From an uncultured bacterium (lineage in GTDB: Bacteria > Patescibacteriota > Dojkabacteria > J137), in contig OY969472.1 in assembly GCA_963700155.1 (NCBI GenBank), positions 808,690 through 872,689 on the forward strand: a DNA stretch of 64,000 nucleotides, given 5' to 3'. The position numbers were made by a program, and so were the translations under genes. Each line of letters starts with the position of its first letter. Within the stretch, counting starts at the first letter, position 1. Shown here one piece after another: positions 7,994 to 24,714 of the stretch. The notes below the pieces were generated by a model. That model did not search any database. It saw only the letters and a program-made list of their open reading frames with translations, and had not been told where the DNA came from.

Positions 7994-8024
7994 TGTTGCA
8001 GTGTCGGATATGTTCTTATATACT
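7994..8024 (+). promoter_or_regulatory. candidate sigma70-like promoter TTGCAG-17-TATACT upstream of the 893-aa membrane protein gene
   Basis: TTGCAG at 7994-7999 and TATACT at about 8017-8022 with 17-bp spacing. This would give a very short or leaderless 5'UTR if translation starts at ATG 8034. Confidence 0.3.
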
Positions 8025-10682
8025 GAATTTGTTATGAAGATCTTCAAAAAGATAAACGAAAACAGGAGGGCTTTTTTTATAGCTCTTATTCTTATATTTA
8101 ATATTCCTTTGGCGTTTGGATTAACTAATCAGGTAAAGGCATATGTAGTTGATGGTACTTCAGACAGAATTCTTAATACACCATCTTCTCAAAACTTTTT
8201 TAATATTCTATCTCCAGATGCTGCAAAATTGGCTACTTCAACGGGTTGTGATGCTAATCTTGGAACTGGAAGCTTTTTTGATGGTGTAACAGCTCTTGAA
8301 TATGGGACTTTGGGTTACGAAGCTCAAACAGCTTTGTGTTTGAATAAAGCTGGTGATTTACAGGCTTTGAATAATTATTTTGATACTAATTCAGGTGGAG
8401 TTATGAATGCTGTAAGCAATATTCAAGCTACTATTCTAGATCAAAGACCAGCGAGTGCTGGTTATTATTTGGAGCAAAAAGTGTATGCATTACAAACTGC
8501 TGGACAAGTTTATGCTCAGGACAATACTTCTCCTGCACCATATTTCCCATCTGGAACTGGTTTCCAATTACTCCAACCTATCCAAGCTTTCTGGGGCTGG
8601 GCAGTAAATATAGTTTATGGATTTTTAATATTGATAATTATTGGTATAGCTTTTGCAATAGTATTTAGGAATAATTTGGGAGGAGCCCAAGTTGTTACCA
8701 TACAAAGTGCGATTCCAAGCATAGCTTTAGCAATGGTACTTGTTCCTTTAAGTTATGCAATTTCCGGAGTTTTTATTGATGCAATAACTGTTGGGACAAA
8801 TGTTGTACATGCTTTCTTATTAGGACCTGGTGCTCCTGGGCAGGCGGTTTATGATAACAGAGGTACAGGAACAGACGGATGTACTGATACTACAGATAAT
8901 CCTTGTGATCGTGGACTTTATGCTGATGATGATCGAGTAAACTGGTTTAACATTCAAAAAATGGTTGATATAAGTAAACCAGTTGAAAATGCAGCAGCTT
9001 CTATTCCTGATCCTTTCACCGGTGCTAAAGGGGGTTTGGTTAACAACTTTTTTGTATTTAAAATTGTAAGTACAATTCTTAACTTATTTAGTGGAAGTGA
9101 TAAACCTTCTGCATATTGGTTTGGGAAGATAATTAATCTTGTAATTGGACTTACAATGATTTGGATAGGTCTAAAGATTTTACTAAAGTTGTTTCAAAAG
9201 TATTTAATGTTGATTTTGATGCCTATTATGTCGCCATTTATTTTTGCAACTGCTGCAATTCCCGGAAATGGGACTAAAAGTATAATTGAATATGTAAAGG
9301 TTTTAGGTTCTGCTTCTCTCTTTTATATTGTGACATATGCGATGTTTTTGTTAACTATTATATTTACTAGTGAATCTTTTCAAAACCAGGTGCCAGATAT
9401 ACAGAGTGGAGCTTTTGTGCCACCATTAATGGGATTTAAAGATATTTTCCAAAATACAGGAGCACTTGGGAGTGTTCCTTTAACTCATTTTATATTTACG
9501 TTGGTTGGACTTGGAATTTATTTCTCAATTCCTAAGGTTCTGGAAGGGATAGATTCTGCACTTGGTGTGCCAACAGCAATACCGAACTTTATCTTGACAC
9601 CTATTAATTCGTTTAGAGAATCAACTAATGTTACATTTAGAGCAGTACAGCAGACAGGAAGAGCTGCCTCTGGTCTTAATCAGTTGAGACAAACCGCAGT
9701 ACCTCAAGCAAGTAGAACCATCCAAAATAGGTTAGATAGGTTAAGGGGATTAAAACCTGGTGAGATAGGAACCTGGGAATACAGAAGAAAGAATGAATTA
9801 TCTCAGCAAAGGGCAAATGCTGAAAGAGAGAAAAGAAAAGCACAAAATATTTTGGAAAATCCTAACGCTCCAGAATCAGAAAAGAATGCTGCTCGAAATA
9901 CAATAGCAGCATCAAATCGAGCTATTAGTAATGTAGATAGAGAGGTTAATAGATATGGATTTGAAGGGGTTGGATATTCTAAGGAGACACCTGAACCTGA
10001 ATTGAAAGTTGAAGTAAAAACAAAGAATGGCTTAGGGGGACCAAATATATTAGGAATAGACTCAGGTTTTATTGAATCTATGACTAGTGGCCCTGGTGGA
10101 TTTATGCTTCCATTAGATATGACAATTGAAGCGGTAGGATTTTCTATGCCAACCAATCCAATTATAACTATATATAGAACAGATCAATTATCAGCAAGTG
10201 AATATAAAAAAATAAATATTTTTGCCGAATTAACAAAAACATCGGGTAATAGCTTAGAGCTATTTGGATCCGCAGATTTCCCATGGAAAAACGATACGTC
10301 ACCTTTATTGCCTATTAACAAAGATGCTAAGGTGGAATTAACAACAGATCTTAATTCAACTAATGCCGATAAATCTTTTAACCCTGGAACTTCTGGAAAC
10401 AAATTAGTTATTCCACTTAAAGTTTTATTTAAGAACTTTGACCCAAATACAAGAAAAGCAGTTTTAGGAGAACAGAGTCCAAGTGGTAATTATATTAAAG
10501 GTCAAATTCAAAGATTTAAAGGAGGAGCGTTAACTTTTGGTGATACAATAAAAAATGGAACTTATACTACTCCAGCTTTAACTCCTGTCAATACAAACAA
10601 ATTAGTCTTTGCAATTACACTTGGTGATGGAAGAATTGCAGAAAGTAATGCAGTAAGTCCAGTAATAACCATTGCTTCTTAA
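8001..10682 (+). CDS. large polytopic membrane protein: signal peptide + ~150-aa exodomain + ~7 TM helices + ~390-aa C-terminal coiled-coil/soluble domain; architecture reminiscent of VirB6/TrbL and Gram-positive ConG/TcpH
   Basis: Cleavable-looking signal MKIFKK…PLAFG, assuming ATG 8034 is the start; the track uses GTG 8001. TM segments include AFWGWAVNIVYGFLILIIIGIAFAIVF, FGKIINLVIGLTMIWIGLKILLKLF, LMLILMPIMSPFIFATAAIPG and VLGSASLFYIVTYAMFLLTIIFT. The C-terminal region is Arg/Gln/Asn-rich helical. No catalytic motif. Confidence 0.45.
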   Translation: MSDMFLYTEFVMKIFKKINENRRAFFIALILIFNIPLAFGLTNQVKAYVVDGTSDRILNTPSSQNFFNILSPDAAKLATSTGCDANLGTGSFFDGVTALEYGTLGYEAQTALCLNKAGDLQALNNYFDTNSGGVMNAVSNIQATILDQRPASAGYYLEQKVYALQTAGQVYAQDNTSPAPYFPSGTGFQLLQPIQAFWGWAVNIVYGFLILIIIGIAFAIVFRNNLGGAQVVTIQSAIPSIALAMVLVPLSYAISGVFIDAITVGTNVVHAFLLGPGAPGQAVYDNRGTGTDGCTDTTDNPCDRGLYADDDRVNWFNIQKMVDISKPVENAAASIPDPFTGAKGGLVNNFFVFKIVSTILNLFSGSDKPSAYWFGKIINLVIGLTMIWIGLKILLKLFQKYLMLILMPIMSPFIFATAAIPGNGTKSIIEYVKVLGSASLFYIVTYAMFLLTIIFTSESFQNQVPDIQSGAFVPPLMGFKDIFQNTGALGSVPLTHFIFTLVGLGIYFSIPKVLEGIDSALGVPTAIPNFILTPINSFRESTNVTFRAVQQTGRAASGLNQLRQTAVPQASRTIQNRLDRLRGLKPGEIGTWEYRRKNELSQQRANAEREKRKAQNILENPNAPESEKNAARNTIAASNRAISNVDREVNRYGFEGVGYSKETPEPELKVEVKTKNGLGGPNILGIDSGFIESMTSGPGGFMLPLDMTIEAVGFSMPTNPIITIYRTDQLSASEYKKINIFAELTKTSGNSLELFGSADFPWKNDTSPLLPINKDAKVELTTDLNSTNADKSFNPGTSGNKLVIPLKVLFKNFDPNTRKAVLGEQSPSGNYIKGQIQRFKGGALTFGDTIKNGTYTTPALTPVNTNKLVFAITLGDGRIAESNAVSPVITIAS

Positions 10683-10700: not shown

Positions 10701-11156
10701 ATGTCTGATAAAGATACTACTGAGAAAACAAAATATATTGAACCTAGAGGATTAGGTAAGATTAATCCTATTGAAGCTTTTCGGGAAAAAGGTCCGGCGG
10801 ATAAGTTTCTCGACTTCATGGCGACTAAAGTTGGAAAACCTGGTGATAAGGAAGGAGATGCTTTTGTTAATGTATGGGGTGGAATAATGAAATCTCCAGA
10901 GAAACTACTGAGACTTGGTATAAAGGGAATTGGTTTAGCTGCATATCCTTTATATGCATTTGAATTAGCAAAAAGTGCAGTTGATAGAAGTATTTCAGAA
11001 GGTAAAGCAAGAGAATCAGATAGAGTAAAATTGATTGAAGAAGAAGCGAAACGTTTAAAAGATAGGATGGAAAGTGAACAAAGTTATCAAGAGTTTCTTG
11101 GTAATTCAGATGATTTTGATACCCTTTTGCCTGCTCAAAAGAGAGGCATTCTCTGA
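10701..11156 (+). CDS. hypothetical protein (151 aa) with one amphipathic/hydrophobic segment
   Basis: ORF 19 nt after the upstream stop. Segment LRLGIKGIGLAAYPLYAFELA. No motif. Confidence 0.5.
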   Translation: MSDKDTTEKTKYIEPRGLGKINPIEAFREKGPADKFLDFMATKVGKPGDKEGDAFVNVWGGIMKSPEKLLRLGIKGIGLAAYPLYAFELAKSAVDRSISEGKARESDRVKLIEEEAKRLKDRMESEQSYQEFLGNSDDFDTLLPAQKRGIL

Positions 11157-13161
11157 CAGATTAGATATAACAGATCCTGAACTCAAAGATATAATTCAGA
11201 ATGAGAATATCTATGCTTGGCTAGGAATAAAACCTGATGATTCTTCTGATCCAGAAAAATTAAAGATAGCGATTGAAAATAGAAAAAAATCGACAAGCAT
11301 ACTTCTTGATTTCTTTACAGATCCTGAAATAGCTAATCTTGCAGAAGAAGATGACATCTCTTTCTTACAAAGTTTAATATCATTTCTTACTAATCCAAAT
11401 TCTGAAAATATTAGCTTTTCGCCAGAAGAACAAAAGAAAATTAAAAGTAAACTTCAAGAAAAAACCGGAGTAAGTGGTGAAGAATTTAATGCTAAAAATC
11501 CAATAATTTATAGATTTATTCATGACCTTGAAAAAATAATAAAAAAGATGCAAAGAGGAGAAGAAAGGTCTGATGTTCTAGATCGAATTGATAAAATCAC
11601 TTCTGCAGCTGAAAAAATTACAACAAATATAGACGCTTCAAATATGTATAAAGATAGATGGTTATCTGCAGCTGCTTGTACTGTGACTCCTTTTAATGAT
11701 AGATTGGGGACTCAAACTCAAATGCCGGAAGATCTTAATATAGAGTTTCATGATAATGGAATGTTTGGAGGAGTAGATCCATTTTTATTTCTTGGATTTG
11801 TTGAGGTGCCAAATCAACAGGAAATTGATGATAAAAAAATTTCATTGGATAATCTTGCATCAAGAATTCCTTCTAAAAATGCGATAGAAGATAATATGCA
11901 AGTTATAAAAGATAAGTATAATATGTCTCAAATTAGACAAAATTGTGAAGTTATCTCTTCTCTCTCTAGAAGGCAGGTAGAATCTATGCATGTTTTATCT
12001 CAGATATTTTTACAGCTTGCTACTACTCCACCATCAACACAGTTTCAGTTTAATTTTGAAGGTAAGACATTAAATATAAATAATGCAGCATTAATTGAAA
12101 AAATTAGAAAAGTAATTTTTCCTGAGAAAGTACAAGGTGAAAATGTTAATTCTTCTGATAATATTTTATTAAGAAAATTTGAATTAAATGAATTGATTAA
12201 AGAAGTTGTTGAATTAGTGTCGAAAGATCCAAATTATGTAACTTTATTAAATTTATTACAAACGCTAAATGATTTTAGCCTGATGACCGAAGACTTAACC
12301 TTCGGATTAAATGATAAAGAAGGTAAAAAAAATACAGCATTAAATTTTATAAAAGACTTAAATTATCCGAATCCAATTTTTGAAGTAATGTATCAACTCT
12401 ATGATGGAGATATGACTAAATTGGTACATGAAAAAAGAAGATATTTTAAAAAATCGAATAGATTATCTCCTTCAAGATCAATCTATGAAGGAATGGTGTC
12501 TGTAATTTCATCAAAACAAGGTATAGTACAGAAACTATCTGACTTAAGAAAGGATGATGGTAAATTTCAGAAAATAGTAGATTTGCATCATCAATATTTA
12601 CAACGAATATCTGATGGAGATTTTGTTCTATCAGAAAATATAGAAGAGAAAAGAGATCCACAGAACTTTATAAAACAGCTTCATGATTTAGCAATAAATC
12701 TAGTTGATAGAAAGTATCCTCAATTAGCAAGGATTATGGGTGATACTTATATTAGTTTTGACGACATTGTACCCCCGAAAATTAAGTCAACTACTAAAAT
12801 CGAAGATTTAGGTAAGTATCCCGATATTCAGAAATTAATAGGACAATTGACATTAATTTCTAAGATACTGTTTAATAGGCAAGCAGAAATTTTAACGAGC
12901 GAGTTTGGAGCTGAACAGGTCAATCCAAAAATACAACAAGAAATGTTTTTTATTGAGCATCACTTAAGAATATTGGTAGCTTTAGGATTTGACATTGATA
13001 ATATAAAAGGGAATAATGTTATAAACTCAAAGCCTTTAATGATGTATCTGAACGGTTTATCAGTAAATCCGATAAATTCAGGAAGATATAAAATAAAGGA
13101 TAATTGTGGTAAGAGCAATTTTACTTTTTCTAGAACTGAAGAGAAACTTAAAATAGCATAA
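11074..13161 (+). CDS. hypothetical large protein (695 aa), N-terminal hydrophobic anchor or signal, mostly alpha-helical
   Basis: GTG start at 11074 preceded by AGGA at 11064-67. It overlaps the upstream gene by 83 nt (translational coupling). N-terminus MNKVIKSFLVIQMILIPFCLL. No Walker A or other motif. Confidence 0.5.
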   Translation: MNKVIKSFLVIQMILIPFCLLKREAFSDRLDITDPELKDIIQNENIYAWLGIKPDDSSDPEKLKIAIENRKKSTSILLDFFTDPEIANLAEEDDISFLQSLISFLTNPNSENISFSPEEQKKIKSKLQEKTGVSGEEFNAKNPIIYRFIHDLEKIIKKMQRGEERSDVLDRIDKITSAAEKITTNIDASNMYKDRWLSAAACTVTPFNDRLGTQTQMPEDLNIEFHDNGMFGGVDPFLFLGFVEVPNQQEIDDKKISLDNLASRIPSKNAIEDNMQVIKDKYNMSQIRQNCEVISSLSRRQVESMHVLSQIFLQLATTPPSTQFQFNFEGKTLNINNAALIEKIRKVIFPEKVQGENVNSSDNILLRKFELNELIKEVVELVSKDPNYVTLLNLLQTLNDFSLMTEDLTFGLNDKEGKKNTALNFIKDLNYPNPIFEVMYQLYDGDMTKLVHEKRRYFKKSNRLSPSRSIYEGMVSVISSKQGIVQKLSDLRKDDGKFQKIVDLHHQYLQRISDGDFVLSENIEEKRDPQNFIKQLHDLAINLVDRKYPQLARIMGDTYISFDDIVPPKIKSTTKIEDLGKYPDIQKLIGQLTLISKILFNRQAEILTSEFGAEQVNPKIQQEMFFIEHHLRILVALGFDIDNIKGNNVINSKPLMMYLNGLSVNPINSGRYKIKDNCGKSNFTFSRTEEKLKIA

Positions 13162-13164
13162 ACT

Positions 13165-13362
13165 ATGGATGATCAACAAAAATTAATACAATCTAAGTTA
13201 GTTTTTCAGAAAATAATTGATAGATTTAGAGAGGAACTACTAGATAAAAAAGATAAAGAAGGAAATTTGCTATACTCTCCTGATGAAATAAATCAAATGA
13301 TTGATGATTTAGTTGAAGCTTTTAATAAAAAGAAAATTAATCTTGTTAAAAAACAAACATGA
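13165..13362 (+). CDS. small hypothetical protein (65 aa)
   Basis: Begins 4 nt after the upstream stop and ends with an ATGA overlap into the 1307-aa gene. Charged and helical. Confidence 0.4.
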   Translation: MDDQQKLIQSKLVFQKIIDRFREELLDKKDKEGNLLYSPDEINQMIDDLVEAFNKKKINLVKKQT

Positions 13363-16300
13363 GTAATCTTAATGTTGATTATTTAAGTATGCATGAGAAA
13401 GCTCCTAACTCTGGAGTTTATGAAGTTTTATTAGGTGTCCGATATCCATTCAATCCAGCTACAGCTTTAGTTCTCCAGGATGTTGCAAAAGAATATGGTT
13501 ACGAAGTAACAGTAAACACAGGTACTGGAGAAATTAAAATTGAGAATTTAAATGCTGAAAATGGAATGACTATTAAGCAACAAATAGAAAATTTACAACG
13601 TGGAGTTGCTAATAATGTAAATAGTGCTCAGAATGTAAATTTAAATTTTACTACTCCAGTAACTTTTGCTACGGGTAGTGTTAATGCTCCAACTTCATAT
13701 AAAGATACTTTGTGGGAACGTTTTACTAGAGATAAAGATAAAGTTAGAGCAGAAAACAGGTTACAGCAATTACTTTTAAATACTAGTGATGCAGATATCA
13801 ACCATATAATTCAAGGAGGGATTGATAGGGTAGCTTTTCTAGATATTATGAATGCTGCTGAGCTTACACCAGTTGATGCAGATAATATTATAAAGTTCAT
13901 AGTATTACTTCAATCCAATCCTGATTATAAATTTGTAAAAAGTCCACTTAGAAAAAAAGTCTTAGATATAATATTAAAATTCGCTTACACAGAATTATTT
14001 CAATCTTCAGCGAAAAATTATTTCCAACAAATTATATCTCAACTAGGTACTCCACCAAATCTTGACTATAGAAAGCTAGATATTTCATCAATTAATATGC
14101 TTTTTGAACCAGTTGGATTAAGTTTTTATACTTTATCAGAAGAACAAAGATCATTTTTCGCAGATCTTTTAAGAAATATAAAATCACAACCTAAAACACC
14201 ACTAAGTCCTGAAGTTGATAAATTACTGGAAATTTTAGCTATGCCTGTAGGTATAAGTATAATTGAAACAGGTTCACTACCAAATGAAAGTATTGCACAT
14301 ATAATTAAAACTTTAAATTATAGTCCAGACGCTGAAGATGAACTAAGTAATCTGTTAAAGATAGAGAAAATCGATCCTAAATTCAGAAGCATATATAGAA
14401 ATCTCAGAATACTTTCTTTATTAGATTTATCCCCCGGAATGCTTGAAACATTAATATTCAAAGAAGATTTATCACCTGAAGGTAAAGATCAAATTGTTAT
14501 TGATATAATTGATAGAATAAATGAGAAAATTCCTGAATATCTATATAGGTCTCAATCGAGACCAAGAGATAGTCTTTTATATGGAGAAACTTTAGGTTTT
14601 CTTCAATATTTGTATCAAGATCCTTCAGGGAATCCAGGGATAACTCCAATTAGAGAATCATTTTTGAACGAATTAGCTAAGAAGTTTAATGCTAATCCTT
14701 TTGATGAGTTTCAAAAAGGTATGTTTGAAGTAATTCTGGAAATAATGAATTCTGGATTAGTGGTTGGGTATAAGAAAGAAAATGCTGATGAAAGAAGACA
14801 GGATAGAGTTGGAGAAGTTCTTAAACAAACTAAATCTCCAAAAACAAAATTAACACTTCCTTCGTATTCTAGAAGTAATTTTAAACCAACTTTACAAGTT
14901 AGTATCACTGGACTACCTGAGGATTATGAAGCTATTTCATTAAACTCTAAGGGAACTATCCCTGAGCTTGTCAATTTATACATTCAAAATCCTGAAGAAT
15001 TTGCTACAAATGCTAATTATGAGGATATTAGATTTAACATTCTTAAAATTATTGAATTTTTACAGTTGGAAGGAATATATGACTATATTGTTGATATACT
15101 TCAGAATTCAAGTGATGAGGATAATGCATATATAAGTCTTGTTGAGACCTTCTATAATACAGAACCTGTTAATAACCAAAGAATATATCCATATATTGAA
15201 AATTTAACAAATATTTTTAAGACATGTTTCAAATCTGGATTTGCTGATACTGATGAAGCATCAAAATATATTTCAGCAAGATTTATTGTAGATATGTTAG
15301 CAAAGCGTACTAAGAAAGATGAAGCTGCATCTAGGTTAGAAACTCCAGCTAATAAGTATGGGATAACAAAATTGTTAAACATACCTTCAGATTTACAAGG
15401 GATAATTCAAGAAGTATCAGATGCACAAGGTAATATAGATCTAACTAAACTTACTAGAATTCAACGGGAAATATTTATAAAAAGAATTAGAACTTTGGAA
15501 TTACAAAGAGGTATTATAAAGATTTTAGAAGATAAAAAAGATTCTCTAACTCCTGATGATATTGATAATCTCATTGATCAAGCTACACGAGCGTTTATTT
15601 CTAATGAAGGACTTGATGGAAAATCAGTTTTTGATATTAATGAGTCTAGTATTAATTTTAAAAAGAACTTGAAAGTCTTTATTGATGGGTTGTTGAATCC
15701 ACCAGATATAACTACAGGGTTAGGTATTAATTTTGAAAGTGAAAAGGAAAAAACTTTAGATACATTAGAGACAATGTACATTGTAATAGGAAAGAAAGGG
15801 AAACTTTTTGAGCTTAGACAAGGTCAAATTTATGATGATCTTGATAAAGTTGAAGAAGATATTAAGGTATTTGTTGAGAATTATAGAGAAGATATCCTTA
15901 ATAAAAATATTGAAATGGAACAAGGTAGGGATCTTGCTAATAATATGGAAGATTCGATAAATCACCTAAAGAATAAACTTAAAAGTCACTATGAGGAAAA
16001 TTATAAAGATGCCCCAAGTAGTGACTTTAGAGATACCTTTAGAAAAAATAGTCGGGTAAAAAATATAAAAAATACATACTTTAAAAGCTTCTTAAATGGT
16101 GTGAATATTACAACTAAAGAAGAATATTCGAATTATTTAGCTTTTGTTGATGTTATTGGAAATTTAATTGACTTAGAAAGTGAAAGAGATTATGAAATTT
16201 TATTTTATCTCTTAGTTGTTCCTGTCGGTATTTTTACGAGTACAGATTATAAATTAAGGTTTAAAGACAAAAAGACGAAGAAGGGTAATAGTTATCATGA

Positions 16301-17282
16301 AGAATTGAAGGGTTATAAACCAGCACCTCCGAGATCAGGTTATAGCGAAAAGGAGATTAAGAATTTAGCCAATCATCTATTAAAAGCTCAACTTAGAGCT
16401 GCAGTTGTTATTTATGAAGAACAAATTGCCCAGCAAAGAGAAGCTTCTAGACTTAATGAAAGAGATAATGAGAAGAAAGATAATAAAAAAGAATCTCATT
16501 CGAATCTTCAAAATACCCCAGAAACAATTAATATTAATGGTACTGAGGTAAAATCTCAACAAAATAAACGTTCGGTAAAAAAGTTAGCGCAATCTATTAT
16601 TAGAAATAGAGGTAAAATTGGAGCTGTGGCTGGAGAGGTTGCAGGAGGTGCATTTGTCTTAGGAATTGCTTCAACTGGAAATATTCCTGGAGCTCTAATC
16701 GCAGGAGAACTTTTCTTCCTCCCGGTAAGTTCAGCAAGAATTTTGCAGATAGGAGCCGACATGAGAAAAGATGATAGAAAAAAATATATTGAAACAATAA
16801 ATGCTAATGTAGAACTACTTAGACAGGATCTCCAGGGATTACCTGAAGTTGTTAGAAATCATACTCAAAATCTTATTAATGCAAAATTTGCTGAAAAATA
16901 TGTAGAAGAATCAAGAAAGAATTTAAAAAATATGAGAGAAAATATTTATCCTAAGATTCAATCTAAGTTAGATAAATCAAAAGCAAGTGAAATTCAAGAA
17001 ATAAATTTAAACTTAGTACCGAAAGCCACGAGAGTTATAGATAAATCTATGTCAGAAATCATGTCATTATTAAGAGATAATGCTTCAGGTAAGCCAATAG
17101 ATCCAGCAAAACTTGAAAAGAGAATTGTTGATTTATTAAGAAAAATAAATGAAGCTATGTTTGAGTTAACAACAATGCTGGAAAATTTAATAAATGATGT
17201 TAGATTAAGAAAGAAAAACTGGGGCGAGAATTGGTACAAAGAACTAAGAATTTTAGAAGAGTCTTATGGAAGTGCTGCTTAA
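13359..17282 (+). CDS. giant hypothetical protein (1307 aa), helical/repetitive, C-terminal glycine-zipper membrane hairpin followed by a coiled-coil
   Basis: No P-loop or enzymatic motif. Segment IGAVAGEVAGGAFVLGIASTGNIPGALIAGELFFLPV (GxxxG-rich). Downstream heptad-like region (…LQGLPEVVRNHTQNLINAKFAEKYVEESRKNLKNMREN…). Confidence 0.55.
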   Translation: MSNLNVDYLSMHEKAPNSGVYEVLLGVRYPFNPATALVLQDVAKEYGYEVTVNTGTGEIKIENLNAENGMTIKQQIENLQRGVANNVNSAQNVNLNFTTPVTFATGSVNAPTSYKDTLWERFTRDKDKVRAENRLQQLLLNTSDADINHIIQGGIDRVAFLDIMNAAELTPVDADNIIKFIVLLQSNPDYKFVKSPLRKKVLDIILKFAYTELFQSSAKNYFQQIISQLGTPPNLDYRKLDISSINMLFEPVGLSFYTLSEEQRSFFADLLRNIKSQPKTPLSPEVDKLLEILAMPVGISIIETGSLPNESIAHIIKTLNYSPDAEDELSNLLKIEKIDPKFRSIYRNLRILSLLDLSPGMLETLIFKEDLSPEGKDQIVIDIIDRINEKIPEYLYRSQSRPRDSLLYGETLGFLQYLYQDPSGNPGITPIRESFLNELAKKFNANPFDEFQKGMFEVILEIMNSGLVVGYKKENADERRQDRVGEVLKQTKSPKTKLTLPSYSRSNFKPTLQVSITGLPEDYEAISLNSKGTIPELVNLYIQNPEEFATNANYEDIRFNILKIIEFLQLEGIYDYIVDILQNSSDEDNAYISLVETFYNTEPVNNQRIYPYIENLTNIFKTCFKSGFADTDEASKYISARFIVDMLAKRTKKDEAASRLETPANKYGITKLLNIPSDLQGIIQEVSDAQGNIDLTKLTRIQREIFIKRIRTLELQRGIIKILEDKKDSLTPDDIDNLIDQATRAFISNEGLDGKSVFDINESSINFKKNLKVFIDGLLNPPDITTGLGINFESEKEKTLDTLETMYIVIGKKGKLFELRQGQIYDDLDKVEEDIKVFVENYREDILNKNIEMEQGRDLANNMEDSINHLKNKLKSHYEENYKDAPSSDFRDTFRKNSRVKNIKNTYFKSFLNGVNITTKEEYSNYLAFVDVIGNLIDLESERDYEILFYLLVVPVGIFTSTDYKLRFKDKKTKKGNSYHEELKGYKPAPPRSGYSEKEIKNLANHLLKAQLRAAVVIYEEQIAQQREASRLNERDNEKKDNKKESHSNLQNTPETININGTEVKSQQNKRSVKKLAQSIIRNRGKIGAVAGEVAGGAFVLGIASTGNIPGALIAGELFFLPVSSARILQIGADMRKDDRKKYIETINANVELLRQDLQGLPEVVRNHTQNLINAKFAEKYVEESRKNLKNMRENIYPKIQSKLDKSKASEIQEINLNLVPKATRVIDKSMSEIMSLLRDNASGKPIDPAKLEKRIVDLLRKINEAMFELTTMLENLINDVRLRKKNWGENWYKELRILEESYGSAA

Positions 17283-17298
17283 ATTTTAAAATAAAAAA

Positions 17299-17727
17299 AT
17301 GTATTTAGATGAAGCAATATTAAGAATATTATATACAATTCCAGTTGAGGTGGATATTACCTCGGAAAAAAAGACATATCTTATGACTTGTTTGCAGGCT
17401 GGTATTGAGGCATTGATTGTTTTTAAGCTTTCTAATCCAAGCGAGTATTCAGAAGAAAGTTTCAATGAAAAAGCAAATCTTTTAAATTCAGAATTAGAAA
17501 AAGAAGATCCTAATATTGATTTATTAATGGGCTTTATGCGAAATCTTCAAGAGAATAAAAATTTTAATTCATTATACGAAAGTTATTTAACTGAAATTAA
17601 TAAAGATATTTTTGAAAAAGCCTTTCAGAGACAGCCTCAACTTCAAGATGAAATAGTACAATATAGTAAAGGTGTTAGAGATAAAGCAATCAAAGAATAT
17701 ATTGAAACATTTGTTGATGTAGAATAA
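17299..17727 (+). CDS. hypothetical protein (142 aa)
   Basis: ORF 17 nt after the 1307-aa gene. Acidic and helical. Confidence 0.45.
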   Translation: MYLDEAILRILYTIPVEVDITSEKKTYLMTCLQAGIEALIVFKLSNPSEYSEESFNEKANLLNSELEKEDPNIDLLMGFMRNLQENKNFNSLYESYLTEINKDIFEKAFQRQPQLQDEIVQYSKGVRDKAIKEYIETFVDVE

Positions 17728-17748
17728 TCACAGTTAAAGCTTTACAAC

Positions 17749-18081
17749 ATGGATTCTAACGAAAATTCAACACAATCATTAGCTCAAAAAACACAATCTG
17801 CAATTAAAACTGCAAAAAAGATTAAGACCATTTGGTTTATTTTAACTTCAGTTGGACCTCTTTTGATTATAGTAATTATTTTTGGATTCCTTTTTTTAAA
17901 CATAAAAGCAAATCCTGTTGATAATGTTGATATACTTTATCAATGCCAAATTGCAGGTCAGCCTTTAGATAATACATGTATAAAAAACCTTAAAGAAAAA
18001 TTTAGAGATCAAATTTCTTCAGATGATCCAGATATTCAGGGAGGATCAGCAAATCCCCACCCTACTTATCCTCGAACTTAA
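17749..18081 (+). CDS. small single-pass membrane protein (110 aa)
   Basis: TM segment IWFILTSVGPLLIIVIIFGFLFL. Last gene of the + operon. Its stop abuts the stop of the convergent gene. Confidence 0.45.
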   Translation: MDSNENSTQSLAQKTQSAIKTAKKIKTIWFILTSVGPLLIIVIIFGFLFLNIKANPVDNVDILYQCQIAGQPLDNTCIKNLKEKFRDQISSDDPDIQGGSANPHPTYPRT

Positions 18082-20379
18082 TTAAGTATCTGTTGGAGTT
18101 GGTTCAACGAATTCAGCATCCTCTGCTCCATTATCATTTTTTACTCCTTGGAAAGGCTGAGGCGAAGATGGGGCTTGGGGTTCAGGTTGTTGAGGTTGGA
18201 TAGGCGCTTTTGATTGAGTTGCTTCTGTCGCCTCAGCCTGCAAACTTGGTTGTTCAGTAGTATTTTCTAAAGGTTGGGGTTGGTTTTCTACAACATTACT
18301 CTGCCCTGTTTCTCCAGGAGTTTCATTAAGATTTTGATCTACCACAGGCCTAGGTTGAAGCTGTTGTTCAGTAATATTATCAGGTCGTACCTCTTGGAAA
18401 GGTGTAATCTCATTATTATTTTCTTTTGGTTCTAATCTTTCTTGTTTAGGTTCACCTCCCATAACAACATTATTGTTTTGAGTCCCAGTTTCAATTGAAC
18501 TTGGTCCCGGTTGAATTGGTTGAGGTTGAATTACTTCTTCAGGTGGTTGTAAAGTTGGTGTTTCAGGAACTGGCTGACCCTTTCCTTGCCAGTAATTTTG
18601 TAATGATTGTTCAATTTCCTCTGTTGTTGGTGCTTGATAATTTTCACTTACTGTTGGCAGATTCTGAGGCGGTTCGCTCGGTGAATATGGTTGTAATGGT
18701 GGCAATGGCTCTGTAGAAACGGGTTGAAATTGTCCAAAATCCTGCGAACCGACTCCATTAAAACCTTGTATCCCATTCTCTTCATTTTTCTTTTTATTCT
18801 TCTTCCAAATTGTATAAAGAACCCAAGGTACAATTAATAAGATTAAAAATAAACCACAAACAAGGAATAATATTATCAAACTGTTTTTAGGAATTTCTCT
18901 TCCTAAGATCACAACATTTTCTTGTGTTAAGGTTTGTTCCTGTGGTTGTGTATTTATTGTAAATGTCCAGTTTATTGAAGCAACTTTTCCATTAGAATCT
19001 TTATAACTTACATTTACTGAATGTTTGCCATCTTCTAAAGGTTTGCTTATATCACAAGTGAAGCCAGACTCAGTTACTTTGCACTGTTTTGTTATATCAA
19101 CATCGTTAAGTAAAATTTTAATACTGCTTGTTACAACTTTCGAATCACTTGAAGGTACAAATTCTCCGGATAGTTGAGGTGATGATACATTTATTTCTGA
19201 TGTACTATCTGGTTTAAGATTTATTATTAATGGTTCACTTTGTGTTTCTTGGGTATTATTTTGAATCAAGAATGAATCCGAGACTCTATTAACTTCTGAA
19301 TTCTGTTTATCTGTAACTGTTATTCTTAAATAATAAATATCATCCGAGATTCTTGAAACGTCCCAAGTATAAGAATTGAATGTAAGTTCCTCTTCTTTAC
19401 TTAATGTTGCGATGGTTTTCCAATTTTTATCTGTATCTTTTGAATATTCTAAAACAATTTTTGCTACTCCATCTGGTTCATTAATATTCCACTTAATATC
19501 ATTACTAGAACCTTTCAATATTGAGTTATATACAGGATAAAGGATATCAATCTTTGTAGGTGTATTGTTTGTTTCCGGTTGTTCTGGAGTACTTGGTTCC
19601 TCAGGTGTTTGAGGTGTTTCTGGATTTGTGCTTGGAGGTGGCGTTGTTGGCTGATCTTTTACAATACTTAATGTAAATTCCTGTGTCGCACTTCCACTTA
19701 TTCCATCATCTACAGCAACTTTTATTTTATAATTTGCTTGATTTACTCCGGTAGGTAATGTTTTTGAATTGCTATTAGTTTTTATTAACCCAGTCTGTGA
19801 ATTTATCGATATAAAATTCGTTCCATAAACTAAGCTATAAGTTAAATGATCATTATCAGGATCATATGCTGTAACTTGATATTGCCATGAATCAGATTCG
19901 TGAATAGTTAAATTTGAAGGATTTGATGTAATTGTTGGGAGTGAATTATGATTTACAATTTTTACTATTCTTGAATTACATGCAGAATAAGAAGAACTCC
20001 CATTTTTCATAGCTGCACAAATCTGTAAGCAATAATTCCCATCAGGCAAATTTGTTGAACTCTGGGTATTATTAGTATTCCAACTTAATGAATTATCCTG
20101 ATTTTTATTTGACGTTCCACTCAAATTTGCATTGATGGTTCCATAATTTACATTCTCACAACTTGCGGCATCAAATAATTTCGCTGTGTATTGAATAGTT
20201 GATTGATCGTCATCCCACATTCTCCAAGTAATATTTATTGCCCCGCTTACTTTTTGATTTGCAGCTGGAGACGTAACATAAAAAATATCGTCAGGATCAC
20301 CTATCTCATAAGCTTTTATAATATTGAACCCGAGAAAGCTGATTAAAATTGTTAAAACTATTATTAATATTTTTTTCAT
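18082..20379 (-). CDS. type-I membrane surface protein: signal peptide, Ig-like/cadherin-like domains, Pro/Thr linker, single TM, ~250-aa cytoplasmic Pro/Gln-rich tail
   Basis: Signal MKKILIIVLTILISFLGFNIIKA. Motif …DNDHLTYSLVYGTNFISINSQTGLIK… (putative Ig / dystroglycan-type cadherin-like). TM IILFLVCGLFLILLIVPWVLYTIW followed by KKNKKKNEE and P/Q-rich low-complexity sequence to the C-terminus. Confidence 0.6.
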   Translation of the reverse strand: MKKILIIVLTILISFLGFNIIKAYEIGDPDDIFYVTSPAANQKVSGAINITWRMWDDDQSTIQYTAKLFDAASCENVNYGTINANLSGTSNKNQDNSLSWNTNNTQSSTNLPDGNYCLQICAAMKNGSSSYSACNSRIVKIVNHNSLPTITSNPSNLTIHESDSWQYQVTAYDPDNDHLTYSLVYGTNFISINSQTGLIKTNSNSKTLPTGVNQANYKIKVAVDDGISGSATQEFTLSIVKDQPTTPPPSTNPETPQTPEEPSTPEQPETNNTPTKIDILYPVYNSILKGSSNDIKWNINEPDGVAKIVLEYSKDTDKNWKTIATLSKEEELTFNSYTWDVSRISDDIYYLRITVTDKQNSEVNRVSDSFLIQNNTQETQSEPLIINLKPDSTSEINVSSPQLSGEFVPSSDSKVVTSSIKILLNDVDITKQCKVTESGFTCDISKPLEDGKHSVNVSYKDSNGKVASINWTFTINTQPQEQTLTQENVVILGREIPKNSLIILFLVCGLFLILLIVPWVLYTIWKKNKKKNEENGIQGFNGVGSQDFGQFQPVSTEPLPPLQPYSPSEPPQNLPTVSENYQAPTTEEIEQSLQNYWQGKGQPVPETPTLQPPEEVIQPQPIQPGPSSIETGTQNNNVVMGGEPKQERLEPKENNNEITPFQEVRPDNITEQQLQPRPVVDQNLNETPGETGQSNVVENQPQPLENTTEQPSLQAEATEATQSKAPIQPQQPEPQAPSSPQPFQGVKNDNGAEDAEFVEPTPTDT

Positions 20380-21959
20380 AAAACTCCTTTATTGCTAATT
20401 AATGTTTTTACATTTGTTTCTAATGTTGTCAATTGTCCTTGTGATACTGAATTCCCCTCAATTACTTTATTAAATGCCTCTTTTATATCCATTCCTTTTA
20501 CCATGTACCAAGTTTTAAGATTAGGAAGCGAATCATTATATATTTTTAGATATTGGTCATCAGATAATTCAGTTGCCATATCTTTTCTTGGATATAAAAT
20601 ACCAAAATATCCTTCATTTGTTTTGATATTGTCACTAAGTTCTTTTAATTTATCAGATTGAGTAATCCACTGTAGGAACTTCCAGGCTTCTGTTGAATTA
20701 GGTCTGTTTAATGCAACCATGTTTCCCCAATACTCAGGCCAGTTGATTACTGCTTGATCTTGTCCTTGTAGTTGAGGCAATTGGGCAACACCAATATTCA
20801 AGTTTAATCCATATTGCTCATTGTAATAAAGGATTTCTCTTAATCTATAGCTAGGTACAATAATCATTGCAACGTTTCCTTCTAAGAATGCTGCTGAATC
20901 ATTTTTTATATCTCTGCTCCATGTTCCTGTAGAGCTATTGGCAAAGTCCTTGTAGAATTGGAATGCTGAAACGGAATCTGTGTCTTCTGCAAATGTGGGG
21001 ACATCTTTGCTATCTGTAACACTAACTCCATTTTGGAATAATAATACATTCAATACATCAAATGAGTAAGAAACATTTGAAGATAATCCTCCTGCGAATC
21101 CTGCAACTTTTATTGTGTTTTTTTCTTTTGTTGTTAAGTTTTGAGCTAGACTTTTAAAGCTTGGCCAATCAGTTGGGACGTTTAGCACTGCTTTTGAAGC
21201 AAGAATATCTTTATTATAAACAACGGCTAATGTATCCAGCCAAAGGGGAACACCATTTATTGTGCCATTATGTGCAAAATCTTGTCCAACAACTTCATAA
21301 AAAGTATTGTTAAATGTTTCAGAATCATAAGATGTACTTGATTTGACATATCTCTCATAATCTCCAGCCCATGTACTACTTACCGAAAAAATATCAGGTA
21401 TTTGAACGGGATCGTTGGCTTTTAATATTCGGTCAAGTTCTGTTTTATAAGTTAAAGCTGCATCATCAGATGCTGTGTCAGCGGGAATCTTATTAGCATA
21501 TTCAATTGTTACATTTGGGTTCTCAGTATTATATTCATCCAATAAAGGCTGAACTTCAGAAGGATCCATAAATGCTCCCCACCATTGCAGGACTACTTTT
21601 TCTGATGATGTATTATTTTGATTCCCGCTGTTGTTACTGAAAAGTAAATTTATAACAAAAATCAAAACTATTATGCCAACGATCCCGATTATTATATATG
21701 GTAAGAATTTCCGTATATCTAATTTGTTTTTTTCAGGCTCGGAATTATTGACTAATGAGTTAGGGTTAAAGTTTGTTGGTGGCGGTGGGTTATAAGTCTG
21801 TTCAGGAATAATTGGTTGTGGCTGAACTGGTTGAAATTGTTGTGCAGTTTGGAATTGCTGATCTGTTGGCTGATACTGCTGTGGAGGTAAATCCACAGGT
21901 TGTGGTTCTACCAGATTTTGTGGTTGTTGTACGTTGTTAAAATTATAATTATCACTCAT
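20376..21959 (-). CDS. membrane-anchored extracellular solute-binding protein (family 1 SBP-like) with ~75-aa cytoplasmic Pro/Gln-rich N-terminal extension
   Basis: N-terminus …PQPVDLPPQQYQPTDQQFQTAQQFQPVQPQP…. TM FLPYIIIGIVGIIVLIFVINLLF, then VVLQWWGAFMDPSE…ENPNVTIEYANK…, typical of sugar-type ABC substrate-binding proteins. ATGA overlap with the downstream gene. Confidence 0.6.
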   Translation of the reverse strand: MSDNYNFNNVQQPQNLVEPQPVDLPPQQYQPTDQQFQTAQQFQPVQPQPIIPEQTYNPPPPTNFNPNSLVNNSEPEKNKLDIRKFLPYIIIGIVGIIVLIFVINLLFSNNSGNQNNTSSEKVVLQWWGAFMDPSEVQPLLDEYNTENPNVTIEYANKIPADTASDDAALTYKTELDRILKANDPVQIPDIFSVSSTWAGDYERYVKSSTSYDSETFNNTFYEVVGQDFAHNGTINGVPLWLDTLAVVYNKDILASKAVLNVPTDWPSFKSLAQNLTTKEKNTIKVAGFAGGLSSNVSYSFDVLNVLLFQNGVSVTDSKDVPTFAEDTDSVSAFQFYKDFANSSTGTWSRDIKNDSAAFLEGNVAMIIVPSYRLREILYYNEQYGLNLNIGVAQLPQLQGQDQAVINWPEYWGNMVALNRPNSTEAWKFLQWITQSDKLKELSDNIKTNEGYFGILYPRKDMATELSDDQYLKIYNDSLPNLKTWYMVKGMDIKEAFNKVIEGNSVSQGQLTTLETNVKTLISNKGVL

Positions 21960-21993
21960 TAATTTCTATTTAATAATTTTATTCATTATACTG

Positions 21994-23487
21994 TTAAACA
22001 CTTCCTGATGGTAGGATATCTAAAACGTTTACTCCAAGTATTCTTAAGATTAATACGCTAAATATTAAGACTGCAACTCCAGTTAGTGTAGCGATTAGCC
22101 TTTCTCTTGCTTTTTTTACACCTTCTTCATCACCTCTTTGATATTGAATTCCTACAAGAATTAATTCGAGCAATGCCACTCCACCGACAACTCCTAATGC
22201 AATTCTAATCAACCCAGTAATTATTCCTAATGGACTTGGGTCTAAGCAGCCGATTGCTGTTGGAATGCCACCACTAGCTCTACATTGAGCAATAAAGTCA
22301 GCATTTCCCTTATCAAGATTTTGACTAGCATTTATATATGCTAATGTATCGGCTACACTGTTATTAATTAAATCTGTTCTGTTGATAAAATTTGTACTAC
22401 CAGTGTCGCAAGTTATTAATTGTTGTTTATTTTCAGGATTAGTATTTTCATCTTCAATAAACATAGCTTCATTGTTAGTAAAACATTTCTGGCAACTTAG
22501 AGTATTACTGTCTAATGCTTCAGTACTTATAATAAAATAATCCTTTCCACTAGAAGTAATTTTTGTGTATGGTACAAACTGATTATCTGCAACATTATTT
22601 ACAACTGCACATCCTTTTGAAGCACATTTGAAATCAGAACCTGACATAGTCCCATCAAGTGATACATTATTAGCCGGGTATGATTGTCCCAATCCTAAAC
22701 CTAGTTGAGGTTTAATTATTCCCCCATCTGAAAAACTAAATTCAGATAAATCTGTAGTGTATCCACTTCCAGTACTTTTAATTCCAACAATTATATTACC
22801 CTGGTTTACACTATTAAGTGCTTCTTCAAAAGAGGAAGTATGTGAAGCTTTTTGAGAGGTATTAGGTATAATTACATTTCCTGATTCATCTTGACAACCT
22901 CCAGAAGTTGGATTTGGATCCCACTTTGTTGGGTTAAGACCAGAACCCACTCGGCAGCAGACACCATTAATATAAGCCTCTGCAGAACTTTCCTGTGCTA
23001 CATTTACAAATTTAAAATCTGTTGGACAGCACCCAGTTGAATATCCTACGAAAGTAGTGATTTTATGAGGTGCTTCTTGTGCAGTCCATCCTTGTGGACA
23101 TGCCCTTGGTATTATTTGCTGGTCGTTATTTGAGCCAATAGAATTTAAATTTTGATTAGGAAAGTTTTTAAGTTCGCTGTTAGTTAAATATCTGACTGTG
23201 AAATTTGTATACTCTTGATTTACACATACTTTGTTAGCATTATCTCCATATGTATCAGATATACTATTAATAAAGCTTTCTTGATTTAAATCTAAATATT
23301 GTGAAGCATTATCAGCTAAATTTAATAGGTTATATTTTCCAGCGGGACAATCTCCATAATTTCTGACGCATTGACTTCCAAACCCATTTAGCTGTGCTTC
23401 GGCTTTGCCAGAAAATCTAGTTGCTCCAACAATAAATAGCACACTTACTATTATCAACAATATAATACTAACTTTTCCTTTAAGCAT
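21994..23487 (-). CDS. secreted Cys-rich protein (497 aa) with C-terminal double-TM hairpin (pilin/VirB2-like topology)
   Basis: Signal MLKGKVSIILLIIVSVLFIVGA. About 20 Cys in the exodomain. C-terminus …GLIRIALGVVGGVALLELILVGIQYQRGDEEG…LIATLTGVAVLIFSVLILRILGV (two hydrophobic helices separated by a short charged loop). Confidence 0.5.
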   Translation of the reverse strand: MLKGKVSIILLIIVSVLFIVGATRFSGKAEAQLNGFGSQCVRNYGDCPAGKYNLLNLADNASQYLDLNQESFINSISDTYGDNANKVCVNQEYTNFTVRYLTNSELKNFPNQNLNSIGSNNDQQIIPRACPQGWTAQEAPHKITTFVGYSTGCCPTDFKFVNVAQESSAEAYINGVCCRVGSGLNPTKWDPNPTSGGCQDESGNVIIPNTSQKASHTSSFEEALNSVNQGNIIVGIKSTGSGYTTDLSEFSFSDGGIIKPQLGLGLGQSYPANNVSLDGTMSGSDFKCASKGCAVVNNVADNQFVPYTKITSSGKDYFIISTEALDSNTLSCQKCFTNNEAMFIEDENTNPENKQQLITCDTGSTNFINRTDLINNSVADTLAYINASQNLDKGNADFIAQCRASGGIPTAIGCLDPSPLGIITGLIRIALGVVGGVALLELILVGIQYQRGDEEGVKKARERLIATLTGVAVLIFSVLILRILGVNVLDILPSGSV

Positions 23488-23508
23488 TTTATTACTTTAA
23501 AATATTAT

Positions 23509-24714
23509 TTATTCTACCCTTTTTATAGCTTCAATATAATATGTGAACTCAGCCTGCCTGCCATCATTCATCTCAGCTCTACCCTTAAAGATATATATAG
23601 GATAAACATATCCTGTCCAATCTTTAGGTTCATAATATCCTAAAAGAGTTTTACTTCTATCCGCAACAAACTTTCTTACCGATACTGTATCAGGTTGATC
23701 CCCAAAATAATTTCCACTCTGAGGAATTAATGAAACAAGTGAACCTTGTCCCTGTTGAATCTTTGTCCAAGCTTCTTCAGGTGTAATTATTAAATATGAA
23801 CCTCGTAAAAGACCATCTGCACTATTACTATCAATACTATACTCGTAATCTGTAAAGTTCAATTCAAAGACATCTTTTTTATAATCACTCAATTTATTTG
23901 AAGCTATCACATGTATTTCTCCAATTCTTGGATCTGCTGTATAAACATATGCATCAATTGGTTTTGGAATCAAAGCTTTATTATCTGTTTGAGGAAGCTC
24001 ATCAGTTGGCTTTAAATCTGCAAAAGATAGATTCCTAAATATATTTATTACAACATAGTCGGCTTCAGCAGGATTGTCATTGTTAAAGAAAGTTCCATTA
24101 TTATATTTAGCAAATCTTGCATCAACCAGACCAGTATCAAAACCTGTGGTATCAAATCCAAGGCTTTTTATTAAACTTAATGCAGATCTTTCATAAGGAT
24201 CAATAGTATTATTTAGTGTCTTGATTCTTTTTGCTTCAATATTATTTGTATAATCAGTCGTCATACTCCAAGTCAAATTCTCCTTATCGTACTTAATAAC
24301 TTTAGTCCCACTAGCTGTTTCCCAGGTGAACAAATTATTATCAGTTGTATAAACAAGCGGATTGAATCCAAGTTTATTTACACTAGTTTGTGCAGCTTCA
24401 AATGATCCTAATTTTTCTCTTGGTTTATCTATTTTATATACATATGCAACATCTGGAAGTACAGTAAATACACTTTCCAGTGAGTATGATGGTGTAACTG
24501 AAGAGTCCAAAGAGATACCTGGAATATTAGGACGAGAAATGTCACCAAAAGCTCTATCAGGATTCATATAATATCTCGCAGTGTTTGTTGGAGTTAAAAT
24601 TGCAGCCTGTTGGGCATTTGAAATAGTTTCGATAACTAAAACTAAGAGTGTAAATATAAGAAAGCCAAAAAGAACTTTTCTCCCAGTTTTTGAAGCGTCA
24701 TAAAGTGTAGCCAT
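23509..24714 (-). CDS. N-terminally membrane-anchored extracellular protein (401 aa); first gene of the surface operon
   Basis: Anchor VLFGFLIFTLLVLVIETI followed by a Ser/Thr/Asn-rich exodomain. No motif. Confidence 0.5.
   Translation of the reverse strand: MATLYDASKTGRKVLFGFLIFTLLVLVIETISNAQQAAILTPTNTARYYMNPDRAFGDISRPNIPGISLDSSVTPSYSLESVFTVLPDVAYVYKIDKPREKLGSFEAAQTSVNKLGFNPLVYTTDNNLFTWETASGTKVIKYDKENLTWSMTTDYTNNIEAKRIKTLNNTIDPYERSALSLIKSLGFDTTGFDTGLVDARFAKYNNGTFFNNDNPAEADYVVINIFRNLSFADLKPTDELPQTDNKALIPKPIDAYVYTADPRIGEIHVIASNKLSDYKKDVFELNFTDYEYSIDSNSADGLLRGSYLIITPEEAWTKIQQGQGSLVSLIPQSGNYFGDQPDTVSVRKFVADRSKTLLGYYEPKDWTGYVYPIYIFKGRAEMNDGRQAEFTYYIEAIKRVE

Follow-up and report, generated by a model that had tools for sequence, protein, structure and literature searches.

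A divergent, extended VirB6/TrbL-like membrane protein encoded apart from type IV secretion ATPases in Dojkabacteria

We analysed a 64-kb stretch of the chromosome of an uncultured member of the Dojkabacteria (contig OY969472.1, positions 808,690 to 872,689; the window in what follows), which carries near one end a gene for a large membrane protein. We consider that this gene probably encodes a highly divergent, extended VirB6/TrbL-type subunit of the Patescibacteria type IV secretion system (T4SS), and that it is encoded apart from the ATPase of that system. An earlier note on the window had proposed that the protein is VirB6-like, and that assignment is supported by three independent lines of evidence: transitive profile homology to TrbL, a top-ranking fold match to TrwI/VirB6, and the linkage of its relatives to genes for VirB4, PrgI and pilins in sister lineages.

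Results

The open reading frame and its homologues

In its longest form the open reading frame (ORF) spans 8001..10682 on the forward strand and encodes 893 residues from a GTG start; both the ORF list and the translation agree with the earlier note on this point. Translation could begin at GTG 8001, ATG 8010 or ATG 8034. Database entry P0001, which is identical to the target ORF, begins at ATG 8010 and comprises 890 residues. We took ATG 8034 as the most plausible start because a typical signal peptide results, and residue numbers for this protein are counted from there (882 residues, beginning MKIFKK). Approximately 90 full-length homologues of ~820–920 residues were found, all from Dojkabacteria where labelled, and the reading frame is therefore not a chance ORF. 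More distant relatives of 490–720 residues are encoded by other Patescibacteria. The gene and the parts of its product are as follows.

8034..10682, forward strand: extended VirB6/TrbL-like polytopic membrane protein (translation, homologues, hhalign, fold match)
8034..8141, forward strand: signal peptide, residues 1–36 (hydropathy, sequence, family consensus)
8142..8573, forward strand: extracytoplasmic N-terminal domain, ~145 residues (charge and cysteine statistics from 66 homologues)
8574..9563, forward strand: polytopic membrane core, residues 181–510 (predicted helices, positive-inside analysis)
8823–9107, forward strand: central outside loop of ~95 residues (264–358), splitting the membrane core
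9564..10679, forward strand: Dojkabacteria-specific C-terminal extension, 372 residues (predicted secondary structure)

Profile and fold evidence for a VirB6-like protein

The relationship to VirB6 was followed through the wider family. An exhaustive HMMER search with the profile of the short-form family, run on representatives of clusters defined at 50% identity, recovered 5,882 of them with a limit of E 1e-3 and 2,839 with a limit of E 1e-30. When the window family (A2) was aligned with the short-form family (A4) in hhalign, the match had a probability of 100% (E 8e-81) and extended over 414 columns, corresponding to residues 32–514 of the window protein. Family member P0250, which the window protein finds by BLASTP at E 9e-13, scores above the gathering threshold of the TrbL/VirB6 profile PF04610 (32.0 bits compared with 25.9; E 1.3e-7), and is matched over profile positions 42–209 of 215. 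Mapped through the BLASTP alignment, the TrbL stretch of P0250 corresponds approximately to residues 316–498 of the window protein (nt 8979–9527). TrbL was also the commonest Pfam match within the short-form family, being found in 8 of 86 members and in 2 of 25 members of a smaller set.

Weaker matches lead to the integrative and conjugative elements (ICEs) of Mycoplasma. The sole NCBIfam match of the window protein was to NF045848, the 'MMCAP2_0566 family conjugal transfer protein' (E 0.037, residues 173–256). The same model is matched by P0097 across most of the core (E 3.6e-3), and P0103 matches NF045889, a Mycoplasma ICE membrane protein, at E 1.9e-6. The Mycoplasma-ICE matches are collinear and lie over the transmembrane (TM) core. 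UniRef gives another relative, P0092, the name 'Type IV secretion system protein'. Searches of PDB sequences by single-sequence phmmer and by hmmsearch with the family profile returned coiled-coil noise and no VirB6, and none of the 16 matches from a word-indexed search with the A1 profile was to an annotated VirB6 protein.

We built an AlphaFold2 (AF2) model of the window protein on 66 homologues, with a mean predicted local distance difference test score (pLDDT) of 76.7, and compared it with 350,542 PDB chains using Foldseek. R388 TrwI/VirB6 ranked first, in several chains, with probabilities of 0.92–0.95 and an E-value of 0.04. Other folds matching the core reached 0.54 at most, and weak matches of ~0.6 were to immunoglobulin (Ig)-like folds on the tail. 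An independent AF2 model of the short form P0103 likewise placed TrwI/VirB6 first (0.97, 0.93 and 0.85), with every other fold at or below 0.33.

Linkage of the family to VirB4 in Microgenomatia

We next consider the genomic neighbourhood of the relatives. ORFs from 80 species-level VirB4 loci (the best 80 from a scan of a genome collection, none of them labelled Dojkabacteria) were searched with the family hidden Markov model (HMM). A family member was present in 34 of the 80 loci, and in 28 of the 37 (76%) whose DNA reaches 9 kb or more upstream of VirB4. For a single-copy gene we estimate that linkage by chance would be ~2%, taking a 20-kb neighbourhood in a genome of ~1 Mb. The family gene usually lies 2–9 kb upstream of VirB4 on the same strand. 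Used alone as the query, the window protein matches ORFs in 32 of the 80 loci, the best at E 1e-26.

The Microgenomatia-type gene order runs from a NUDIX gene through the family gene and a convergent gene of 900–1100 codons to a few further genes and three or four PF18895 pilins. Locus L009 continues from the family gene and four pilin genes to PrgI (VirB3-like), a TraC-like gene and VirB4. The family gene, convergent gene and pilin array are found together in L002, L010 and L011, with PrgI also present in L002 and L010; these three DNA stretches end before any VirB4. In L013 the family gene is followed by a gene of ~1000 codons, PrgI, a TraC-like gene and VirB4, the distances being 4 kb to PrgI and 8 kb to VirB4. 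The family member in this last locus, P0129 (L013 679–3069, 796 residues), also shows a weak match to PF04956 TrbC/VirB2, and may be a VirB6–pilin fusion or a compositional match.

The convergent gene is fast-evolving and, in Microgenomatia-type genomes, always lies immediately downstream of the family gene. It may be an unrecognised T4SS-associated component. Adjoining the family gene, it was located at:

L002 11671–14970, reverse strand
L009 11705–14419, reverse strand
L010 11626–14910, reverse strand
L011 11812–14640, reverse strand
L013 3201–6245, reverse strand

VirB4 itself is 61–81% identical across Woykebacteria, Curtissbacteria, Gottesmanbacteria, Shapirobacteria and WWE3 (L014–L093), whereas the VirB6-like gene beside this conserved VirB4 is merely ~20–30% identical to the Dojkabacteria form. 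Many of the records of metagenome-assembled genomes in this set are mis-titled 'uncultured Gammaproteobacteria', 'Nanoarchaeia' or 'Clostridia'.

Predicted architecture and topology

The N-terminus has the features of a signal peptide, as the earlier note had supposed: a K/R-rich n-region and hydrophobic residues 14–30 precede VKA/Y, the slash marking the predicted cleavage point, where the family consensus ends V-x-A or A-Q. The Kyte–Doolittle profile agrees, with a hydrophobic segment at residues 11–34. Residues 37–180 form an acidic domain with approximately two conserved cysteines, predicted to be helical in the AF2 model, and common to the whole Patescibacteria family; the hhalign match to the short-form family begins at residue 32. 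The charge and cysteine statistics are in keeping with the extracellular domain of ~150 residues that had been proposed, here of ~145 residues.

For the membrane core, hydropathy marks segments at approximately 183–218, 218–254, 362–388, 390–411, 423–447 and 477–499, and the AF2 model has five long helices, at 181–210, 217–263, 359–406, 415–445 and 481–510, with pLDDT ~90. The multi-TM core described in the earlier note therefore stands; its count of about seven helices does not, there being five or six after the signal peptide, and seven is reached solely if the signal peptide is counted. Across the 66 homologues the cysteines are found in the N-terminal domain and the central loop, both of which are acidic, as is the loop at 447–480; the short loops after TM1 and around residues 385–422 are K/R-rich. 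Taking hydropathy, AF2 helices and these positive-inside statistics together, the simplest predicted topology has the N-terminus outside and the C-terminus inside, five TM passes between them and a large outside loop at the centre, an arrangement that meets the positive-inside rule at all six loops. VirB6 of A. tumefaciens reportedly has the same topology (N-out, five TM helices, a central outside loop and C-in), described by Jakubowski et al. in 2004.

The C-terminal tail

Beyond the core, the AF2 model predicts four long helices at residues 518–641 (~125 residues) followed by a beta-rich domain at 656–880 (~225 residues). The earlier note had described this part as a soluble coiled-coil domain of ~390 residues. 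A soluble tail is retained, at 372 residues; the whole of it is not coiled coil, as ~225 residues are beta-rich. In all 49 long forms 305–405 residues follow the last TM helix, compared with 43–226 in short forms. Conservation falls along the protein: pairwise identity among the 49 long forms is 66% in TM1–2, 47% in TM3–6, 22% in the tail helices and 17% in the beta part of the tail. As judged from these alignments, the tail is fast-evolving yet length-conserved. In loci L001 and L008 short-form genes that lack the tail occupy the same syntenic position, which indicates that the same gene acquired the tail within one lineage and that the long form is not a paralogue.

We also considered an extracellular location for the tail, as the weak Ig-like or adhesin fold matches would have it. 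This was judged less likely, because the tail is net positive and nearly cysteine-free in the 66 homologues and because the five-TM arrangement fits the positive-inside rule.

The Dojkabacteria locus

The position of the VirB6-like gene is shared by the window and loci L005, L006, L001 and L008. A cobalamin adenosyltransferase gene lies upstream, with genes for a P-type ATPase and alanyl-tRNA synthetase (AlaRS) beyond it in L005 and L006. Downstream there is a variable stretch and then a conserved block encoding Ig-like, SBP_bac_1-like (SBP-like) and ~400-residue proteins; in L005 and L006 a protein of 400–500 residues comes next, whose C-terminal ~90 residues form a VirB2-like T4SS_pilin domain. 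In the window the members of this block are:

18082..20379, reverse strand: 765-residue Ig-like (Big_13/DUF6941) membrane protein (Pfam matches all just under the curated cut-offs)
20376..21959, reverse strand: membrane-anchored SBP_bac_1-like protein (E 7e-156 to the L005 orthologue, which carries PF01547/PF13416)
21994..23487, reverse strand: 497-residue protein with a VirB2-like T4SS_pilin domain (PF18895, E 0.0019, below the cut-off)
23509..24714, reverse strand: 401-residue N-terminally anchored protein (orthologues in L005, L006 and L001)

The pilin domain of the 497-residue protein covers residues 425–482 (nt 22042–22215) and the protein has two C-terminal TM helices. In phmmer it matches, at E 1e-12 to 3e-14, the large PF18895 proteins that head the Microgenomatia pilin arrays upstream of PrgI–VirB4. 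Its gene is 11.3 kb from the VirB6-like gene and is kept in L005 and L006; the 401-residue protein gene is always paired with it in Dojkabacteria. Orthologues of the Ig-like protein occur at the same position in L005, L006, L001 and L008. Among the 80 VirB4 loci, homologues of the SBP-like protein were found in five and weak homologues of the 401-residue protein in six, and relatives of the pilin-like protein are also present in a few.

The four genes of the block are co-directional in the window (18082–24714, reverse strand) and may constitute a single operon. The strands differ in L005 and L006, where the 400-residue and pilin genes are paired on one strand and the SBP-like and Ig-like genes on the other, pointing to an inversion in the lineage of the window. 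A scan for promoters and terminators gave counts at chance level.

The window lacks recognisable secretion ATPases. The ORFs between 8001 and 24714 are all without a Walker A motif, and inside a gene the motif is seen just once in the 64-kb window, in an ABC transporter (54798..56564). Pfam searches of essentially all window ORFs of at least 90 residues gave no VirB4, VirD4, FtsK or relaxase domain, and phmmer with full-length Patescibacteria VirB4 retrieved nothing among window ORFs of at least 80 residues. These scans confirm the statement of the earlier note that the operon has no P-loop protein. In the simplest reading, the T4SS locus of Dojkabacteria would be split, with its membrane and pilin half here and its ATPase half elsewhere. 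This reading is the simpler one because homologues of the SBP-like, pilin-like and 401-residue proteins adjoin VirB4 in some Microgenomatia.

Variable genes behind the VirB6-like gene

The stretch between the VirB6-like gene and the conserved block is filled as follows.

10701..18081, forward strand: six tightly packed genes encoding 151, 695, 65, 1307, 142 and 110 residues (gaps or overlaps of at most 21 bp)

These genes are probably co-transcribed with the VirB6-like gene. None of the six products has a Pfam match at the curated cut-off (best E 0.0045) or a Walker A motif, and none has a homologue in the syntenic loci L001, L005, L006 and L008. Their G+C content is 28–29%, compared with 32–36% in neighbouring stretches. 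The same spot in other lineages holds genes for unrelated proteins of ~180–1000 residues, reaching 900–1000 residues in L001 and L008. On these comparisons the six genes are a lineage-specific filling of a variable spot. The 695- and 1307-residue proteins gave no informative PDB or Pfam match. The latter is helical, with a Gly-zipper-like hydrophobic stretch near residues 1085–1125, and its sole PDB match, at a non-significant E of 0.016, was to a Legionella Dot/Icm effector (6VVC/6VVE).

Weighing the alternatives

Several observations weigh against assignment of the protein to a T4SS. The window protein has no Pfam match at E up to 0.1, and none of 57 long-form Dojkabacteria proteins matches PF04610 at E up to 1; the profile check suggested in the earlier note thus fails for the window protein itself and succeeds transitively, through the family that includes P0250. 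With the family profile, neither TrwI nor another VirB6 of the PDB is reached at E up to 10. The Mycoplasma-ICE matches score 13–28 bits compared with curated cut-offs of 70–90 bits, and the Foldseek E-values of 0.04 and 0.055 are non-significant alone, with a TM-score on the target of at most 0.46. The topology is predicted from hydropathy and charge statistics, to which a six-TM, C-out model is an alternative; that model breaks the positive-inside rule at three places. Genes for VirB4, VirD4, PrgI or a TraC-like protein are absent from the 64-kb window, which extends 8 kb upstream and 53 kb downstream of the VirB6-like gene, and from the 10 kb on either side of that gene in five further Dojkabacteria loci. 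The VirB4 of this genome was found neither in a protein search, which was dominated by Microgenomatia VirB4 (70–80% identity), nor among the best 80 loci of the genome-collection scan, likewise filled by Microgenomatia VirB4.

One alternative takes the absence of ATPases at face value. The platform and the pilin-domain protein would have become uncoupled from the T4SS motor to form a VirB4-independent surface apparatus for attachment or uptake, joined by the Ig-like, SBP-like and 401-residue membrane proteins and either powered otherwise or passive. In its favour, the conserved Dojkabacteria block is without an ATPase in six loci, the gene is parted from VirB4 only in Dojkabacteria, and this is also the lineage that acquired the long C-terminal extension. 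We nevertheless regard such an apparatus as unlikely. Dojkabacteria are listed among the lineages with a T4SS and VirB4: according to the literature, VirB4 is carried by 2,417 of 3,035 Patescibacteria assemblies, Dojkabacteria included, and two Dojkabacteria assemblies were flagged VirB4-positive (PMC12102498). Homologues of the SBP-like, pilin-like and 401-residue proteins stand beside VirB4 in some Microgenomatia, and an ATPase-independent system has no known precedent. The earlier note had left a choice between an ATPase-independent and a trans-supplied system; given the VirB4 reported in Dojkabacteria, supply in trans is the best option.

The protein might instead belong to an unrelated polytopic family, a transporter or membrane anchor whose likeness to VirB6 is superficial and which lies near T4SS genes through shared regulation or chance. 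The lack of any direct Pfam, NCBIfam or PDB sequence match for the window protein and the long forms would fit this, as would the non-significant E-values of the fold searches and the proneness of helical membrane proteins to compositional artefacts. Against these stand the score of P0250 above the curated TrbL threshold and the recurrence of TrbL as top family, the ranking of VirB6 first among all PDB chains by two independent models, the linkage to VirB4 in 28 of 37 loci where ~2% is expected, and the independent weak matches to conjugation membrane proteins of Mollicutes ICEs. This explanation therefore appears quite unlikely to us.

The variable genes invite a further proposal, in which the VirB6-like platform would act as an autonomous 'cargo gate'. 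The tail would be a built-in receptor for substrates or a coupling module that takes the place of VirD4 or docks VirB4 in trans, and the downstream variable genes would encode secreted effectors that go to the host cell. If this were true, the locus would be an effector-diversification hotspot tied to a channel subunit, although we hold the proposal to be doubtful at best.

Least of all do we favour a decaying remnant of a lost T4SS or integrated conjugative element, the 'decayed T4SS' of the earlier note: the absence of any ATPase, relaxase or coupling protein nearby and a truncated ORF6N fragment (24891..25190) that hints at past mobile DNA would suit it, but the ORF of 882 residues is intact, there are ~90 full-length orthologues, the core is 47–66% identical across the 49 long forms and the gene keeps its syntenic place amid housekeeping genes (those for AlaRS, a P-type ATPase, cobalamin adenosyltransferase and DNA ligase), all of which indicates vertical inheritance under purifying selection and makes decay very improbable.

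Other features of the window

The window has a G+C content of ~30% and carries housekeeping genes typical of a reduced genome, among them those for AlaRS, UvrC, NrdR and a Mur ligase. It also encodes an ATP-dependent DNA ligase, a class II ribonucleotide reductase and ThyX. The ORF6N fragment mentioned above is a forward-strand ORF of 99 residues that sits between the genes for the 401-residue protein and the DNA ligase. Its match to the ORF6N (antirepressor/KilA-N-related) domain is confined to the C-terminal half of that domain, and the ORF is probably a remnant of mobile DNA. In the ribonucleotide reductase (35263–38967, reverse strand, 1234 residues) the match to the barrel domain comes in two stretches and an odd TACO1/YebC_N-like match lies inside, which suggests that something has been inserted, perhaps an intein or a further domain. 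The ThyX (Thy1) homologue (42969–44639, forward strand) has 556 residues, approximately twice the usual length, and its domain match is limited to residues 52–259.

Discussion

Proposed mechanism

By analogy with VirB6 of R388 (TrwI) and of A. tumefaciens, we suggest the following course of events. The signal peptide would be cleaved and the protein would insert N-out, crossing the membrane five times, with its large central loop outside and its C-terminus inside. It could then oligomerise into a membrane platform for assembly of a VirB2-like pilin and for passage of substrate, the pilin being supplied by the domain encoded 11 kb away (21994..23487). Energy for the platform would come from a VirB4 ATPase that docks by way of a PrgI/VirB3-like protein and is encoded elsewhere on the 1.14-Mb chromosome; we infer both the oligomeric state of the VirB6-like protein and the presence of VirB4 in this genome. 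The tail of 372 residues, with its helical stalk and beta domain, would be a lineage-specific cytoplasmic add-on, and probably serves the ATPase or cargo as a module for docking or regulation.

Significance

Among secretion machines, the T4SS alone has been shown to be indispensable to the epibiotic life of a cultivated patescibacterium; the T4SS of Southlakia epibionticum is the subject of Wang et al. (2023, cited in PMC12857230). VirB6, the channel subunit of this machine, is reported to be scarce or absent in large classes (PMC12102498). T4SSs are widespread and chromosomal in Patescibacteria. HMM screens of 3,035 genomes found 480 VirB6 homologues, and VirB6 was described as 'scarce' in Microgenomatia, which was attributed to extreme divergence (Quinonero-Coronel et al., 2025; PMC12102498). 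The 'missing' VirB6 would correspond to a family of ~5,900 clusters that goes almost unrecognised by current Pfam and NCBIfam models and for which a secreted, cysteine-containing ectodomain is characteristic. Within this family the Dojkabacteria gene appears to have left the VirB4 locus and to have gained a long extension, predicted to be cytoplasmic. The practical value lies in better annotation of microbial dark matter, and the ectodomain, the tail and the adjacent variable genes are targets for structural and genetic work on contact between parasite and host. The current understanding of T4SSs is left standing, and specialists will find no surprise here.

Comparison with known systems

'Extended VirB6' proteins are a recognised class, with at least five hydrophobic helices and large hydrophilic central or C-terminal domains (PMC12857230). 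The earlier note had likened the window protein to ConG of ICEBs1 and TcpH of pCW3, and the generic layout of this class is indeed shared: an N-terminal multi-TM region, a long soluble C-terminal region, a size of ~800–900 residues and a monoderm host. A specific relation to TcpH, the sole member of the pair that was compared, was rejected, since hhalign of the family profile with pCW3 TcpH gave a probability of 5.9% and aligned only a TM stretch of 42 residues. The tails are unrelated and were acquired independently, as follows from the short-form gene at the same position without a tail. Whereas TcpH is encoded in an operon with TcpF (VirB4-like) and TcpA (FtsK-like), the window gene is without an ATPase neighbour, and the 64-kb window holds none of the partners of a conjugation operon (VirB4-like ATPase, coupling protein or relaxase).

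The Mycoplasma ICE proteins of the NF045889 (Mbov_0396) and NF045848 (MMCAP2_0566) families give sub-threshold, collinear matches and belong to MPF-FATA-type systems, a class related to the VirB4 of Patescibacteria. The polytopic CDS16 of mycoplasma ICEs, which carry an MPF-FATA-type T4SS, is regarded as VirB6-like (PMC12857230). These proteins serve conjugative DNA transfer, whereas the window has no relaxase.

With TrbL/VirB6 proteins such as R388 TrwI (PDB 7O3V, 8RT9 and 8RTD) and A. tumefaciens VirB6, the window protein shares a polytopic core, a central outside loop and the predicted N-out/C-in orientation. Canonical VirB6, however, has ~300 residues and lacks the signal peptide, the cysteine-containing ectodomain of 145 residues and the tail of 372 residues. 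The host of the window, moreover, is a monoderm without VirB7, VirB9 or VirB10.

The nearest comparison is with the chromosomal T4SS of Patescibacteria, in the same phylum, where VirB4, PrgI/VirB3, TraC-like proteins and arrays of VirB2-like pilins are encoded near the short forms. That system is non-conjugative, and the short-form relatives lie 2–9 kb from its VirB4. Compared with the published VirB6 proteins of Patescibacteria, the family of the window protein extends to ~5,900 clusters, mostly missed by Pfam, and its Dojkabacteria form differs in having the added tail and in lying away from VirB4. The family is the obvious candidate for the 'missing' VirB6 of Microgenomatia.

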